A stretch of 60,802 nucleotides of DNA, counting the filler, from Dehalococcoidia bacterium (GTDB lineage: Bacteria; Chloroflexota; Dehalococcoidia; DSTF01; RBG-16-68-14): assembly GCA_040882355.1 (NCBI GenBank). It is 6 parts of 6 records of this genome, joined end to end, with 100 filler letters (N's around TTAATTAATTAA, not from the genome) between each part and the next. Parts side by side here need not be neighbours in the genome. Positions count along the whole stretch, not along the records: positions 31,241 to 60,802 come from JBBEBM010000034.1; 5 more parts are not named here. One strand, written 5' to 3'. Shown here one piece after another: positions 52,291 to 57,751 of the stretch. The notes under the pieces were generated by a model that had not been told where the DNA came from, searched no databases, and worked only from the letters and a program-made list of their open reading frames with translations. Every line of letters begins with the position of its first letter. The stretch's first letter is position 1. Made by a program: the position numbers and the translations under genes.

Positions 52291-53352
52291 CTACTCTCCC
52301 GCGTAGCCGGCGATCAGGTCGCCGACCTCTGAGGTCGACATGCCCATGCGGCCGGCGGCGAGCGACTCGATCTTGCCGGACGAGAGTGCGCGCTCGACGG
52401 CGCCCTCGATGCGGCGCGACGTGTCGTGTTCGCCGAGGCTCTCCATGAGCATCTGGACGGCGCTGATGGCAGCGACCGGGCAGATGACGTTCTGGCCGGT
52501 GTACTTGGGGGCGCTGCCGCCCATCGGCTCGAACATAGAGACGCCCTCCGGGTTGATGTTGCCACCCGCGGCGACACCCAGGCCGCCCTGAATCATGGCG
52601 CCCATGTCTGTGATGATGTCGCCGAACATGTTCTCGGTGACGATGACGTCGAACCACTCCGGGTTCTTGATCATCCACATCGACGTCGCGTCGACGTGCG
52701 CGTAGTCGCGCTCGATGTCGGGGTAGTCGGCCTCGCCCACCTCGTTGAACGTCCGCCACCAGGTGTCGTGGACGAACGTGAGGACATTGGTCTTGGCGCA
52801 GAGGGTGAGCTTCTTCGCGCGGTTGCGCGCGCGTGTGACGTCGAAGGCGTAGCGGATGCAGCGCTCGACGCCGAAGCGGGTGGTGATGTGGATCTGTGTC
52901 GAGACCTCGTGCGGCGTGCCCTTGTACTGGAAGCCGCCCATGCCGCTGTACAGGCCCTCGGTGTTCTCCCGCACGACGATGAAGTCGATGTCCTCCGGGC
53001 CCTTGTCCTTGAGGGGCGTGTCGACGCCCTTGTAGAGCTTGACGGGGCGGAGGTTGATGTACTGGTCGAGCTCGAAGCGGATGCGCAGCAGCAGGCCCTT
53101 CTCCAGGATGCCGGGCGCGACCTCGGGGTGGCCGACGGCGCCCAGGTAGATGGCGTCGAAGCCGCGCAGCTCGTCGAGGACGGAGTCGGGGAGGACCTCG
53201 CCGGTGCGCAGGTAGCGCTCGCCGCCCAGGTCGAAGTTGTGCAGCTCGTAGCGGACCTCGGTGCGGGCGGCGGCGGCCTCGAGCACCTTGAGGCCCTCGC
53301 GCACGACCTCAGGGCCGGTGCCGTCGCCTCCAATGACAGCGATGCGGTACAT
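52291..53352 (-). CDS. leuB: 3-isopropylmalate dehydrogenase
   Basis: [46 protein letters not shown]. Confidence 0.85.
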
Positions 53353-53730
53353 GGGATGTTCCTTTCTGGCGAGACGGGGCGTGTAGGGGGCGGGTCTCAG
53401 ACCCGCCCGGTCGGGCATGTGTGGTTCAGGCGCACAGTATAGCGAACGCGTCAGGTAGGGGGGGGGGGNNNNNNNNNNCTCGCGAGCCGCCCCTACGCTC
53501 CGACAGGCCGAAGGCTGTCCCACCGAATGGAACGTCCGCCTCCGATGGAGGCAGGTCGCGGGAGGCCTGAAGGGGCGATTATACCTTTGACACACCTTAG
53601 GCGGAAGCGCCCAATCTCGGCAAGATTCCTCCCGAAATAGTCGCCCCAACCCCTTGTGCTCTCGGAGATCGTGTGGTATCTTAGATCCGTAATGATCTTG
53701 GAGACGCGAGGGAGAAGGGAGGTGAACAGT

Positions 53731-53889
53731 TTGCCCAAAGCGCCAGCGAATGGGGAGCGCGAAATGGTGCACGTCCGGCTGGACGCCAAGCTCGTGCGCG
53801 CCATCGATCACCTGGCCGTTGATTGGCGACTGTACCGCAATGAGGCGATGGAACGACTGCTAAAGGAAGCAATCACCAAGTACGAGTGA
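53731..53889 (+). CDS. Ribbon-helix-helix (CopG/Arc-like) regulator, 52 aa
   Basis: MVHVRLDAKLVRAIDHLA...RNEAMERLLKEAI; GGGAGGTG RBS before TTG; promoter TTGTGC-17-TATCTT upstream. Confidence 0.75.
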   Translation: MPKAPANGEREMVHVRLDAKLVRAIDHLAVDWRLYRNEAMERLLKEAITKYE

Positions 53890-53892
53890 ACG

Positions 53893-53927
53893 CGAAACGG
53901 AGCGGGCATACACCCCGCTCCGTTTCG
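53893..53927 (+). terminator. 14-bp perfect hairpin between the RHH gene and the tRNA-like gene
   Basis: CGAAACGGAGCGGG-CATACAC-CCCGCTCCGTTTCG; no clear U-tract, so it may be a processing or attenuation stem. Confidence 0.45.
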
Positions 53928-53936
53928 GCAACCCGG

Positions 53937-54012
53937 GGGCAGGTGGCGAAGTGGAAACGCAGTGGATTCGCAGCCCACTATCGCAGGGGTTCGATTCCCC
54001 TTCTGCCCTCCA
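53937..54012 (+). tRNA. tRNA-like gene (Cys-like body, loop UUCGCAG, nominal anticodon CGC)
   Basis: Acceptor GGGCAGG/TCTGCCC, U73, encoded CCA, D arm GCG/CGC with GG, perfect T arm AGGGG-TTCGATT-CCCCT; A-C mismatch at the base of the anticodon loop. Confidence 0.8.
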
Positions 54013-54033
54013 GACTAGCTAGGACAGTATACC

Positions 54034-55026
54034 ATGACCGAGCCTAAGACGTTCCTGGAGATACTACAGTGGTCGCCAGCCCAGGCCCGCAAGTACCTAG
54101 AATCAGTGCGCTGGCCGGACGGCCCCGTATGCCCTAACGGGTGCGCCGCTGAGGTCTACCGCTTCGAGGCCAGGACGCGCCGCAAGACGGCGAACGGCGA
54201 GACGAAGGTACAGCCGACTCGCCATCTGCTCAAGTGTTCATCCTGCAAGCGCCAATTCAGCGCGACGGTCGGGATGATCTTCGAGGACTCGAAGGTGCCG
54301 CTCAACAAGTGGCTGGCCGCGATATACCTCATGTGCGCCAGCAAGAAGGGCATGAGCGCCCACCAGCTACACCGTATGCTAGGCGTCACTTACAAGACCG
54401 CGTGGTTCATGTGCCACCGTGTCCGCCACGCCATGAGCGACAAGAACGGCGCTCCCCTCAGCGGGATCATCGAGGCCGATGAAACCTACGTCGGCGGTCG
54501 CCCGCGTGGACACCCGAAGCACCGCTCTGGTCGCTCGCAGCGCGAGATACAGCGCCAGTCCTACAACGCCAAGACGCCGGTGTTCGGCATACTCGAACGG
54601 GGTGGCCGGGTCCGCGCGGTTGCAATGCCAGGGGTCAGCAAGACGAAGATTGAGCAGGCGTTCGCGGATAACGTCGATTTCGATTCGTCCGTCCTGGTCA
54701 CAGACGAAAGCCCGCTCTACGGCGACATAAAGACGCTGCTGCCTCATCGCACCGTGAAGCACTCTGAGGAGTACGTGACCGGCGATGGCATCCACACTCA
54801 AGGGATCGAGAATTTCTGGAGCCTGCTCAAGCGAGGGCTACACGGGACATTCCACCACGTCCGGCCCGCCTACCTCGGGATGTACGCGGACGAATTCGCG
54901 TTCCGCTACAACGCTAGGGAGATGAACGACGGCGAGCGCTTCGCTTCGGCTTTGGAGCAGGCTCAGGGTCGCCTGACTTGGTACGTGGGGCGGGCTTCTC
55001 AGGGGCCGTCTCAGCCAGCTTCTTGA
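54034..55026 (+). CDS. IS1595-family (ISXO2-like) DDE transposase
   Basis: Zn ribbon CPNGC...CSSC, HTH, EADETYVGG, LVTDE, HTQGIENFWSLLKR, YADEFAFRYN. Confidence 0.95.
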   Translation: MTEPKTFLEILQWSPAQARKYLESVRWPDGPVCPNGCAAEVYRFEARTRRKTANGETKVQPTRHLLKCSSCKRQFSATVGMIFEDSKVPLNKWLAAIYLMCASKKGMSAHQLHRMLGVTYKTAWFMCHRVRHAMSDKNGAPLSGIIEADETYVGGRPRGHPKHRSGRSQREIQRQSYNAKTPVFGILERGGRVRAVAMPGVSKTKIEQAFADNVDFDSSVLVTDESPLYGDIKTLLPHRTVKHSEEYVTGDGIHTQGIENFWSLLKRGLHGTFHHVRPAYLGMYADEFAFRYNAREMNDGERFASALEQAQGRLTWYVGRASQGPSQPAS

Positions 55027-55087
55027 TGGCTTCGCGGAACGTCAACGGAGCAAGGCTGACGCTCGTATCCTCGCGCTTCTTGGGCAT
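54914..55087 (-). CDS. Small basic protein antisense to the transposase 3' end (57 aa)
   Basis: MPKKREDTSVSLAPLTFREAIKKLAET; AAGGGG RBS-like sequence; overlaps the transposase by 113 nt. Confidence 0.45.
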   Translation of the reverse strand: MPKKREDTSVSLAPLTFREAIKKLAETAPEKPAPRTKSGDPEPAPKPKRSARRRSSP

Positions 55088-55172
55088 ATGTTTGAAACCC
55101 CTTGTTCGCGCACTCGCGTTGGCGCTTAGGCAGACGCTTGACTCTAGAAGCCAGATCGCCGATAATCTGGGA

Positions 55173-55491
55173 TTGAAACATAGAAACCCCGCGTGGGGTA
55201 GGGACACCCGTCAGCGAGGCTTCCGTTGATGTCAGCAATCACACGGTAGCACGGTAAGCGCGGTTGTGTCAATGACCCCTACCCCACGCGGGCAGGGGTT
55301 CTTTTTCGCCATTCTCCGGCGCGAGCCGGTTGACTGGGCACTTGCTCCAACAGGCGGGGTGGGTGCGTAGAAGGAGCTGGTGGCCCCGATGGGCCGTTCA
55401 ACTCAGGGGGCCACCAGCATTCAGAAAGGAGAGTGGGTCTGCCGTGAGTGTCGTTCACGGGATAGAACCCTGACCCCCTTCGGGGGGTCAG
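55173..55491. ncRNA. Structured non-coding region within the IS
   Basis: 16-bp perfect IR (55188-55203/55277-55292), 12-bp stem (55376-55418), 6-bp stem, 9-bp cUUCGg hairpin (55470-55491), and opposed promoter motifs. Confidence 0.45.
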
Positions 55492-55537
55492 TTTAGCACA
55501 CGCGATCAAGAGCGCAAGCAGCAGAGGAGCACCGCTT

Positions 55538-55822
55538 TTGCCGTTCCTACAAACTGACAAGACCTACCAATTCCGTGGCACCCAGTGGCACGCCGTCCCT
55601 GGCGTGTACGGGATCATGAACGCCAGCAAGCAGATGATCTACATCGGCGAGACGGAAGATTTCCAGCGCCGGATGCAGGAACACCAACAGGACTCGGCGC
55701 ACTGTATGCACCGATACAGCCCGGCCCTCGTGTGGGCAGAGGTCATTCAGGGCGGAGCCGAGCCACGTCGCCAGCGCGAGCGCCAGCTAATCGCTGAATA
55801 CGCTCCGCCGTGCAATGGTTGA
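55538..55822 (+). CDS. Minimal stand-alone GIY-YIG nuclease (94 aa)
   Basis: PGVYGI...MIYIGET...RRMQEH...RERQLI...PPCN; GAGGAG RBS. Confidence 0.85.
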   Translation: MPFLQTDKTYQFRGTQWHAVPGVYGIMNASKQMIYIGETEDFQRRMQEHQQDSAHCMHRYSPALVWAEVIQGGAEPRRQRERQLIAEYAPPCNG

Positions 55823-56039
55823 TCCTGGTCGGGTCATCTAACGACATCGCCCCGATCCCATCGAATCTGCCTGACTCGCGGATGAAAAACAACTCCAGGG
55901 AGTCAACAGAGACGATGGTGTATCGGGGCGATGTGCGCACCTTGACCCGTTGACCTGTCACTTGATCGGTATACTCGATAGGCCGCACGAATCCAGGTGC
56001 GCCCGCCAACTGCAATAACCTTCCTACCATCCACTTCAT
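55743..56039 (-). CDS. Hypothetical protein
   Basis: Open frame convergent with and overlapping the GIY-YIG gene; downstream of an IRR-derived TTGACA-18-TATGCT promoter. Confidence 0.55.
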   Translation of the reverse strand: MKWMVGRLLQLAGAPGFVRPIEYTDQVTGQRVKVRTSPRYTIVSVDSLELFFIRESGRFDGIGAMSLDDPTRINHCTAERIQRLAGARAGDVARLRPE

Positions 56040-56166
56040 CGACGGTAGTGTCGGCCTCCTGCTAAGGTTCAGCATAGGGAAATCCTCCAGGGTGTGTCAA
56101 AGGTATAATCGCCCCTGAAGGCCTCCCCTACACGCTAATCCGACAGGCTGAAGCCTGTCCCACAGA

Positions 56167-56253
56167 TCAGGGAACGACCGCGCTGGCGCTGCCGACGATG
56201 ATCTTCGTGCCGTCGACCTTCTCGACCCTGACCTCGCAAGCTCCGCGGCGGCG
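56167..56253 (-). pseudogene. Diverged duplicate of the 3' end of the MaoC-like gene
   Basis: RRRGACEVRVEKVDGTKIIVGSASAVVP* versus RRRAQCEVWVEKPDGTKIIVGTASAVVP*. Confidence 0.9.
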
Positions 56254-56283
56254 TGGTCGATACTACACCTGGAGCGAGATGAC

Positions 56284-56706
56284 GTGACGCTTAGACATCA
56301 ACCCGCATGGATTGAACTGATCTTCCTCGGGGGCAGTGTAGCGGGGTTGATCGGTGCACTGACGGTCCAGGTGTGGCTAGGTGCGGCCGCTAGCGGCCTC
56401 TTGGCTGGATGGTTTCTGCCTCGAGTTTGGGACGGGATTTCCGGCTTGAAACGAGGGTTGCCCTGGGAAGGCCGGGAGTTCGAGTTGACGTTCTTGCCAT
56501 CGCGCGCGCAGCAGTTTGCGATCTGCATGCCGTTCATGCTGGGCTACACGCTTTGGCGCATCGTGGACAGCGGCTGGCTCGGCGCTGCGATCAATGCCCC
56601 GTTCCTTGTGGGCTACGTGATCTGGTTCGTGCATGTGCTTCGCACGGAAGGCTGGTCCGGAAGCGGGCGCGGCGCTCACGGCGAGGAGGCGTCGCGGGAG
56701 GCCTGA
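56284..56706 (+). CDS. Hypothetical membrane protein (about 4 TM)
   Basis: Hydrophobic ORF with lower GC; its stop codon lies within a REP. Confidence 0.65.
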   Translation: MTLRHQPAWIELIFLGGSVAGLIGALTVQVWLGAAASGLLAGWFLPRVWDGISGLKRGLPWEGREFELTFLPSRAQQFAICMPFMLGYTLWRIVDSGWLGAAINAPFLVGYVIWFVHVLRTEGWSGSGRGAHGEEASREA

Positions 56707-57606: not shown

Positions 57607-57751
57607 GGCGCGGCCCTCCTCTCGTGGTGGGTGGATCGTAGCACACGCCTGTCAACGGATGCGAAACGGATTAGCGGATGCGATTCGACGCGCCCCAGCC
57701 GCCGACTTCGTCGGCGAGGGGGGNNNNNNNNNNGCGCACAACCGTGCGCCC

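Follow-up and report, generated by a model that had tools for sequence, protein, structure and literature searches.

The 2,540-bp element at positions 53574 to 56113 of the DNA analysed here, a stretch of 60,802 nucleotides (the window) joined from six parts of the genome of an uncultured Dehalococcoidia bacterium (GCA_040882355.1), is an intact transporter insertion sequence (tIS) of the IS1595 family with ISNwi1-like ends. We take it to be an additional member of this known kind of insertion sequence (IS), and we take its clade to possess an undescribed fixed accessory set, namely a small protein, a promoter in each end and a slot of variable content, together with a recurrent tRNA passenger. 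The best joint explanation, which we regard as rather probable, combines a tIS backbone and a variable cargo slot with regulatory roles for the small protein and a structured RNA, and with a tRNA that would act through its anticodon.

The element is bounded by two terminal inverted repeats, at 53574-53596 on the + strand and at 56091-56113 on the − strand, both reading GGCGATTATACCTTTGACACACC (23 of 23 positions, 0 mismatches), and by the 8-bp target duplication CCTGAAGG at 53566-53573 and 56114-56121 (8 of 8), as is the rule in the IS1595 family. The terminal sequence has only two matches in the window at up to three mismatches, where 100 shuffles gave an expectation of 0; a repeat finder reports an inverted repeat of 37 nt, but only owing to the palindromic target (GGGAGG-CCTGAAGG-CCTCCC). 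The ends start with GGCGATTAT, and the pattern GGnnATTAT...TTGACA, whose TTGACA lies at 53587-53592 in the left end and faces inward, is common to the relatives. Ends beginning GGnnATTAT define the ISNwi1 subgroup in ISfinder. The transposase gene (54034-55026, + strand) encodes an intact protein of 330 aa with an N-terminal Zn ribbon and a DDE_Tnp_IS1595 domain, as in the IS1595 family: it matches DDE_Tnp_IS1595 (1.1e-36, 153/153 profile positions) and Zn_ribbon_IS1595 (1.4e-08) of Pfam and transpos_IS1595 of NCBIfam (8.6e-65), while D149, D224, E259, K266, R267, C33, C68 and C71 are invariant, and C36 nearly so, among 13 relatives. The other 1,547 of the 2,540 bp (61%) hold a ribbon-helix-helix (RHH) gene, a tRNA gene, a gene for a 57-aa protein, a structured RNA, a GIY-YIG nuclease gene and a gene for a 95-aa protein, all inside 53574-56113, which places the element among the tIS. 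A preliminary description of this DNA, made from the sequence alone, had reported the perfect ends and the duplication, an intact Zn-ribbon/DDE transposase of the IS1595 family, ISNwi1-type ends, a non-transposase share of about 60%, and the RHH gene, a 14-bp hairpin, the tRNA-like gene, the small antisense open reading frame (ORF), the structured non-coding DNA and the GIY-YIG gene; all of these were found exactly where it had placed them.

The GC content of the element is about 60%, versus 65-73% in the flanks, and its neighbours are a dehydrogenase gene on one side and a membrane-protein ORF on the other. At 53460-53478, about 100 bp to the left, a G-run is followed by 10 N (a masked stretch), and ORFs near 57700 show further N blocks as XXXX.

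The element thus has the Zn-ribbon and DDE_Tnp_IS1595 transposase, GGnnATTAT ends, 8-bp duplication and passengers of an ISNwi1-type tIS. No sequence found exceeds 70% identity to its transposase, among annotated plasmid copies the highest value is 43%, and the best annotated relatives are named only 'IS1595 family transposase'. The IS1595 family was reportedly defined by Siguier, Gagnevin and Chandler in 2009. The tIS literature searched, with that paper and ISfinder outside the search, makes no mention of the small protein, of tRNA genes, of an RNA leader or of hairpin-loop targets, and searches for ISNwi1 and for IS1595 together with 'tRNA-like', again with the 2009 paper outside them, found nothing relevant. 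According to the accessible part of the TnCentral preprint, which gives a definition of tIS, such elements are confined to the IS1595 and IS66 families (10.1101/2021.05.26.445724).

The comparison covered 160 related loci, 80 from genomes (best identity 49%) and 80 from metagenomes (best 59-70%, L081 to L085), which together with the window make 161. Elements were delimited by a script that looked on either side of the transposase gene for paired ends starting with GG; a locus counted as delimited when 18 or more of 22 end bases matched and 7 or more of 8 bases were duplicated, which was achieved in 52 of the 161 loci, the window included. In almost all of these 52 elements the transposase gene is preceded by about 100 bp and followed by 1.0-2.6 kb, therefore the whole clade carries cargo; the left arm of the window element, at 460 bp, is unusual compared with the relatives. 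The backbone shared with the closest relatives is composed of the Zn-ribbon/DDE transposase, inward −35 boxes in both ends and a convergent gene for a small basic protein. To its right lies a slot with content differing between elements, filled in the window by a structured RNA of about 310 nt on the + strand, a minimal GIY-YIG gene and the 95-aa protein gene, and in the closest elements by HNH, Panacea, NYN or KilA-N genes and unknown ORFs. Most of the 73 larger cargo ORFs compared with Pfam have no family; the matches are Panacea (2), HNH (2), NYN, KilA-N, DUF5343, DUF1508, MtlR/DUF4145 and GIY-YIG/DUF7508. We take the slot to hold, often, nuclease or toxin-antitoxin-type genes.

The preliminary description had further proposed that this particular combination may be one conserved regulatory or defence module. 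The full combination occurs in none of the 160 related loci, the RHH gene has no relative in them and the cargo of the closest elements differs, which speaks against a single module; what survives of the idea of non-random cargo is the conservation of the small antisense protein, of the RNA-plus-GIY-YIG pair and of the habit of carrying tRNAs. The defence proposal found no support, as PADLOC recognised no defence system among 20 proteins and returned only generic nuclease-domain matches without partners (the GIY-YIG protein to PDC-S14/HEase, and the HNH protein of L082).

Several relatives deserve a separate description. The closest transposase relative (70%), L084:2881-5621, is truncated at its 5′ side and abuts a UvrD/PcrA-like helicase gene; its right end is 22/23 identical to that of the window element and its 1.7 kb of cargo is unrelated. 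L086:232-1113 has an internal stop in the transposase frame and is a decayed copy. Alphaproteobacterial-type loci (L013, L029, L036 and others) share a recurrent layout with no Pfam family in its ORFs, composed of the transposase, a small minus-strand LKRMLxTPPKPHK ORF (38 of the 52 delimited elements), a divergent + strand ORF, belonging to one family of about 200-260 aa in 13 elements, and a minus-strand EIEITPAMIxAG ORF, at the right end in 9 elements.

The 57-aa basic protein (MPKKREDTSVSLAPLTFREAI...) is encoded at 54914-55087 on the − strand, by a gene that is convergent with that of the transposase and extends over the final 113 bp of the latter. Homologues occupy the same place in L081 to L085, L001 and L002, and the gene is present in 8 of the 10 elements with a transposase at least 48% identical to that of the window; in the other two (L003 and L086) a tRNA stands in its place. 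A profile search found 131 homologues, all 'hypothetical' and of no family save one stray Pfam hit. In 18 codons situated almost entirely outside the transposase gene, comparison with the five closest relatives gave 4-8 synonymous versus 3-6 non-synonymous changes, and the third codon position changes most in 4 of the 5 comparisons. Judged by this divergence and by its homologues, the ORF is a real, uncharacterised protein. It would be the element's own regulator, and the favoured target is transcription of the cargo or of the transposase, because its gene and the cargo promoter region are arranged back to back.

The tRNA gene of the window element (53937-54012, + strand, 76 nt) was identified by ARAGORN and by Rfam (RF00005, 49.1 bits, E 8.6e-09). 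It has the anticodon CGC, an encoded CCA, a 7/5 cloverleaf, a 5-nt variable loop and an intact T-arm, together with a Leu-type D-arm, G3-C70, U73 and an A31/C39 mismatch. Alanine tRNAs have NGC anticodons, and their identity resides in a G3:U70 pair and in A73; the window tRNA has the anticodon, but neither the pair nor the A73. The tRNA of the sister element L082 differs in body, strand and position and again carries an alanine anticodon (UGC) with U73 and no G3:U70. By these identity rules, neither of the two should be charged by alanyl-tRNA synthetase.

ARAGORN detected 26 tRNAs over the 161 loci. The element zones, which total 386 kb, contain 17 of them, and the 560 kb of flanking DNA contains 9 (binomial p 0.0099); 52 of the zones are delimited, and for the other 109 a span of −150 to +1800 nt relative to the transposase gene was assumed. 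A tRNA lies inside or just past the transposase gene in 13 of the 161 loci, and most of these tRNAs are irregular; the Rfam gathering score was reached by the tRNAs of all loci tested (22 matches, 20 loci). Outside the elements the tRNAs are ordinary and inside they are mostly irregular, with long variable arms combined with Pro (L003, L086, L012a, L100), Asp (L157), Asn (L158), Ile and Gly (L090) anticodons; the L158 tRNA scores best with the tRNA-Sec model. The D-arm of the window tRNA, GTGGCGAA.TGG.AAACGC, is common to the tRNAs of L003, L086, L012a and L100. In the decayed copy L086 the tRNA, with a long variable arm and a UGG anticodon, is kept 18 nt after the transposase gene. The UGG anticodon is found in five tRNAs of diverged elements, and an alanine anticodon in both the window and L082. 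Because anticodons recur in this way among diverged elements, we take the anticodon to be under selection, and the recurrence argues for an anticodon-dependent role of the tRNA over pure RNA punctuation.

In the punctuation alternative, the tRNA would be an RNase P or 3′-processing signal that separates the RHH and transposase messages, with an anticodon and an identity that do not matter and are free to drift, or in the relatives it would end an antisense transcript. The positions agree with this: the tRNA of the window starts 9 nt after the hairpin and ends 21 nt before the transposase ATG, in L003, L086, L016 and L012 the tRNA lies 18-68 nt past the transposase stop on the opposite strand, and a mismatched identity is what drift is expected to produce. 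However, UGG is kept in the five diverged tRNAs and an alanine anticodon in the window and L082 despite differing bodies, and the D-arm and anticodon arm are kept too, in addition to the acceptor/T minihelix. We consider punctuation as the only function unlikely. In the anticodon-dependent reading, which we prefer, the tRNA would belong to a recurrent class of IS-borne tRNAs with mismatched anticodon and body and would act via its anticodon. It would not be a housekeeping alanine tRNA in this reading; instead it would counter an anticodon-directed activity, as decoy or antidote, or serve as a missense decoder at a low level.

A comparable class is that of the allo-tRNAs. In the accessible part of their paper, Mukai et al. 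(2017) describe irregular tRNAs from soil metagenomes near toxin-antitoxin and transposon-related genes (PMC5389517), and a link to transposable elements was suspected by these authors (PMC5389517; review PMC7609411). As in the allo-tRNAs characterised in the accessible text of these two papers, the body and the anticodon of the window tRNA disagree and its gene stands beside transposon-related genes. Unlike them, with their 8/4 or 9/3 structure and long variable arm, it is a 7/5 tRNA with a short variable loop and hence lies outside the class; several of the relatives' tRNAs do have long variable arms. IS1595 is not named in the accessible portions of the two papers (PMC5389517, PMC7609411).

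The unusual left arm of the window element would result from the addition of about 390 bp between the left end and the transposase gene, a part that would comprise an RHH repressor gene, served by its own weak promoter and an operator-like palindrome, the hairpin and the tRNA. The RHH gene (53731-53889, + strand) encodes a CopG/Arc-type protein of 52 aa from a TTG start 8 nt after GGGAGG; it reaches the Pfam profile RHH_1 at the borderline (20.7 bits versus a cut-off of 20.5). Besides an identical 52-aa protein, the database contains two homologues that are 74-78% identical to it, and PF01402 is present in one of these; no match to the protein was found in the PDB by sequence. Three nt after the RHH stop follows the perfect 14-bp hairpin (53893-53927, + strand, 100% complementary), which has no T-run after it and does not appear in the terminator listing of the promoter/terminator scan. 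By eye, a weak promoter-like pair, TTGTGC-17-TATCTT with a TG before the −10, was noted together with the palindrome AGATC-CGTAAT-GATCT, which lies at the putative RHH transcription start (53654-53698 for both, + strand).

In the relatives, the TTGACA of the left end is followed after 17-18 nt by a −10-like box and then by the Shine-Dalgarno sequence and ATG of the transposase gene. The −10 position of the window element is degenerate (CCCAAT), and because of this the transposase is probably made from an RHH-hairpin-tRNA-transposase transcript, which the RHH protein would throttle and which would be cut at the tRNA.

Downstream of the backbone, the structured RNA spans 55186-55493 on the + strand. 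It is made up of a long hairpin at about 55187-55297, a domain of several helices and, at 55477-55493, a terminal GC hairpin, and the fold of the region has a z-score of −5.39 against shuffles on this strand. A related sequence precedes the GIY-YIG gene of L085 as well: positions 55261-55500 are 83% identical to it over 250 nt, and overall identity is about 83-90%, in an element with a transposase only 59% and a GIY-YIG protein 28% identical to those of the window. RNAalifold predicted 71 pairs, all kept in both sequences (71/71), with three double and nine one-sided changes and with length changes confined to loops, whereas sliding the partners by 1-3 columns left 39-53% paired; the outer stem of the long 5′ hairpin is also kept in L085. 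The many G-U pairs favour the + strand. Such a comparison of two sequences is suggestive of a conserved RNA structure, which would be a cis-acting leader gating the expression of the nuclease. A promoter-like site, TTGACT-17-GATAAT (55138-55166, + strand, 10/12), faces the RNA and the GIY-YIG gene.

Searched against Rfam with E up to 1, positions 53300-56400 matched only the tRNA, and nothing for 55100-55540; the RNA was therefore not assigned to a T-box, a riboswitch, a group I or II intron, a ribozyme or a known IS-associated guide RNA. A type III toxin-antitoxin pair of RNA and nuclease was discarded as well, as tandem repeats are absent from the RNA. Pairing of the tRNA with the structured RNA was likewise rejected, since the duplex energy is no better than that of the shuffled tRNA on either strand (−62.1 versus a shuffled mean of −67.2, and −67.2 versus −63.9 on the other strand).

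The minimal GIY-YIG nuclease gene (55538-55822, + strand; Pfam 4.1e-11) encodes 94 aa from a TTG start after GAGGAG. Genes of this kind lie downstream of the transposase in four elements (the window, L085, L029 and L036), and G22, Y24, Y35, G37, R45, E81 and N93 are invariant in the four copies, which thus possess the GIY...YIG motif and the catalytic Arg, Glu and Asn of the superfamily. The catalytic Y, Y, R, E and N are those of homing endonucleases such as I-TevI (PDB 1mk0). In contrast to free-standing and intron-borne enzymes, the window protein is a 94-aa catalytic domain without a linker or a DNA-binding domain; unlike for intron-borne enzymes, no intron RNA was detected in the element, and the match to the I-TevI catalytic domain is weak (E 0.019).

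In an alternative reading, the RNA and the GIY-YIG gene would form a nested, homing-endonuclease-like selfish unit that invades IS copies and is neither cargo chosen by the IS nor a defence module. The differing placement of the gene, which follows the small ORF in the window and L085 whereas in L029 and L036 it separates the transposase gene from the small ORF, would be in line with this, as would the resemblance of the N-terminus to intron-associated endonucleases (TIGR01453 at 1.2e-05, the I-TevI match and the PADLOC 'HEase' match at 1e-4). On the other hand, no repeats or duplications bound the segment, the 94-aa protein has no DNA-binding domain, Rfam finds no intron and the RNA was met only together with the IS. 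We judge a selfish cassette to be improbable, on a par with punctuation, and keep to the reading of the RNA as a leader in a variable cargo slot.

At the right end, the preliminary description had noted a convergent hypothetical gene. This gene is real, but the alignment of homologues moves its start to M16 (56030) and shortens the product to 95 aa, so that it occupies 55743-56030 on the − strand, its last 80 bp overlapping the GIY-YIG gene. The protein belongs to an unnamed family (RTSPRYT...FF.RE.G.FDG) with 15 homologues at 51-74% identity and no Pfam match, and a search of 401 sampled Chloroflexota genomes did not recover it (one doubtful match). Two homologues lie in viral contigs: one (L164:590-850) is immediately preceded by an amidase-like gene and followed by small holin-like membrane ORFs, and the other (L165:3959-4363) forms the N-terminal part of a 134-aa protein encoded in a RecT/exonuclease/integrase region. 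A model of the 95-aa protein (pLDDT 61.7, poor) gave no Foldseek match to viral structures at E ≤0.001, and the Atlas offered weak leads (0.88) to short integrase-family fragments. The gene would be driven by the right-end promoter, for which TTGACA-18-TATGCT (56071-56100, − strand, 10/12) is the candidate; its −35 lies inside the right end and faces inward, and the site is followed by GGAGG and an inward ATG. The right ends of L082 and L085 show the same promoter layout.

About 50 bp inside the right end a subterminal motif, CCTCCTGCTA / CCGCCTGCTA, is conserved (window 56040-56090; L082, L084 and L085). Its minus strand encodes M-x-x-S-R-R after GGAGG, and in L085 this frame stops after 11 codons, leader-peptide-like.

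The target of the insertion is a palindromic hairpin, similar to repetitive extragenic palindromic (REP) sequences, with the element sitting in its loop; the empty site would read GGGAGG-CCTGAAGG-CCTCCC. Two REP-like hairpin copies, GACAGGCYGAAGSCTGTC, 89% alike, flank the insertion site at 53499-53526 and 56139-56166, and because these two similar hairpins surround the target palindrome the insertion is placed within a REP-like palindrome cluster. The target hairpin of L085 has nearly the same sequence (GGACAGGCCTGAAGGCCTGTCC), and the two elements have an identical 8-bp duplication. When a contiguous stem of at least four pairs abutting the duplication was counted, the duplication being loop and upper stem, hairpin-loop targets were found in 9 of the 52 delimited elements (the window, L085, L082, L003 and five others), whereas in 1,000 shuffles of the flanks the count averaged 1.0 and never exceeded 5; several more fit the pattern if shifted by one base. 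The IS3-family elements IS1397 and ISKpn1 insert into the hairpin loops of REP sequences and bacterial interspersed mosaic elements. Like them, the window element has inserted in the loop of a repeated palindrome, with a duplication made up of loop and upper stem and with further similar hairpins on both sides (53499-53526, 56139-56166); unlike them, its clade has another transposase family, and only a subset of the clade, the 9 of 52 of the strict stem count, targets hairpins.

The element is present in contigs of four DNA runs, all from one sediment study; these contigs read through both junctions without change, and the insertion is the same in all. They contain no 53573-56114 empty-site joint, no second copy and no other flanks, although rare variants could escape contigs. 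The recent activity proposed in the preliminary description is suggested by the perfect ends but is not borne out by any empty site or second copy in these contigs. A joint of 53523 with 56140 in run X3 (depth 2, side 24, 9 other letters between) was rejected as an empty site, which would be 53573-56114; it links the two flanking REP-like repeats, and the contig that joins them is probably another REP locus. Loose contig ends cluster at the REP copies and at a conserved transposase motif, not at the IS ends. At 54284-54398, the SKKGMSAHQLHR...YKTAWFM part of the transposase gene, the summed depth rises 2- to 10-fold in three of the four runs and many loose contig ends occur as well; the sediment community is rich in other IS1595-type elements.

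Several results weigh against the explanation that we favour. The RNA structure rests on the same two sequences from which it was derived: blastn and nhmmer over 165 loci found no RNA homologue besides L085, 401 Chloroflexota genomes gave two short weak matches only (27-37 nt), two 20-nt motifs of the RNA had 0 matches in viral contigs, and a proxy, the spurious minus-strand ORF that covers the RNA, had 0 matches among 1.84 billion representatives. The register of the promoter-like site at 55138 is not kept in L085, and the RHH promoter-like pair scores 8/12, under the 9/12 threshold of the scan, and was recognised by eye. The small LKRMLxTPPKPHK ORF of 38 of the 52 elements, which is placed differently, was tried as a member of the 57-aa family and rejected, with an hhalign probability of 4.5% and an expected 17 columns aligned, which leaves homology of these relatives' ORFs to the window protein unsupported. 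The enrichment of tRNAs is modest, 15 versus 9 when two overlapping doubtful L086 calls are left out, and 109 of the 161 element zones on which it depends are assumed and not delimited. The alanine identity rules are general ones and may differ in this organism. Finally, all transcripts, promoters and processing steps proposed here are deduced from sequence.

The weakest rival, that the cargo is a set of randomly captured fragments without function, with a decaying tRNA and an incidental 'structured RNA', would agree with a full combination unique among the 161 loci, with cargo that differs even between the closest relatives, with an RHH gene present in the window only and with a pseudogene-like tRNA that has the A31/C39 mismatch and lacks identity marks, but we hold it very improbable against the coding-type divergence of the 57-aa ORF and its 131 homologues, an RNA that is about 83-90% identical with 71/71 pairs kept though the transposases are 59% identical, the invariant catalytic residues of the four GIY-YIG copies, anticodons that recur in diverged elements and a tRNA that scores 49 bits and has both its T-arm intact and its CCA encoded.

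A bolder extension of our explanation, which we advance as a long shot, is that the IS1595 elements of this clade are 'tRNA-armed', the mismatched tRNA working for the element alongside the small protein and the structured leader. The tRNA could then be an antidote or decoy for a tRNA-directed nuclease in the cargo slot, a deliberate missense decoder or a ligand of the leader RNA; in the last case, a T-box-like circuit could couple the expression of the nuclease or transposase to the charging of the element's tRNA.

The reachable literature treats cargo-carrying IS1595 elements as ordinary ISs with arbitrary passengers. If the tRNAs are functional, these transposons would be a vehicle that spreads translational recoding or tRNA-based protection, and they would provide a genomic home for the irregular soil-metagenome tRNAs of Mukai et al.

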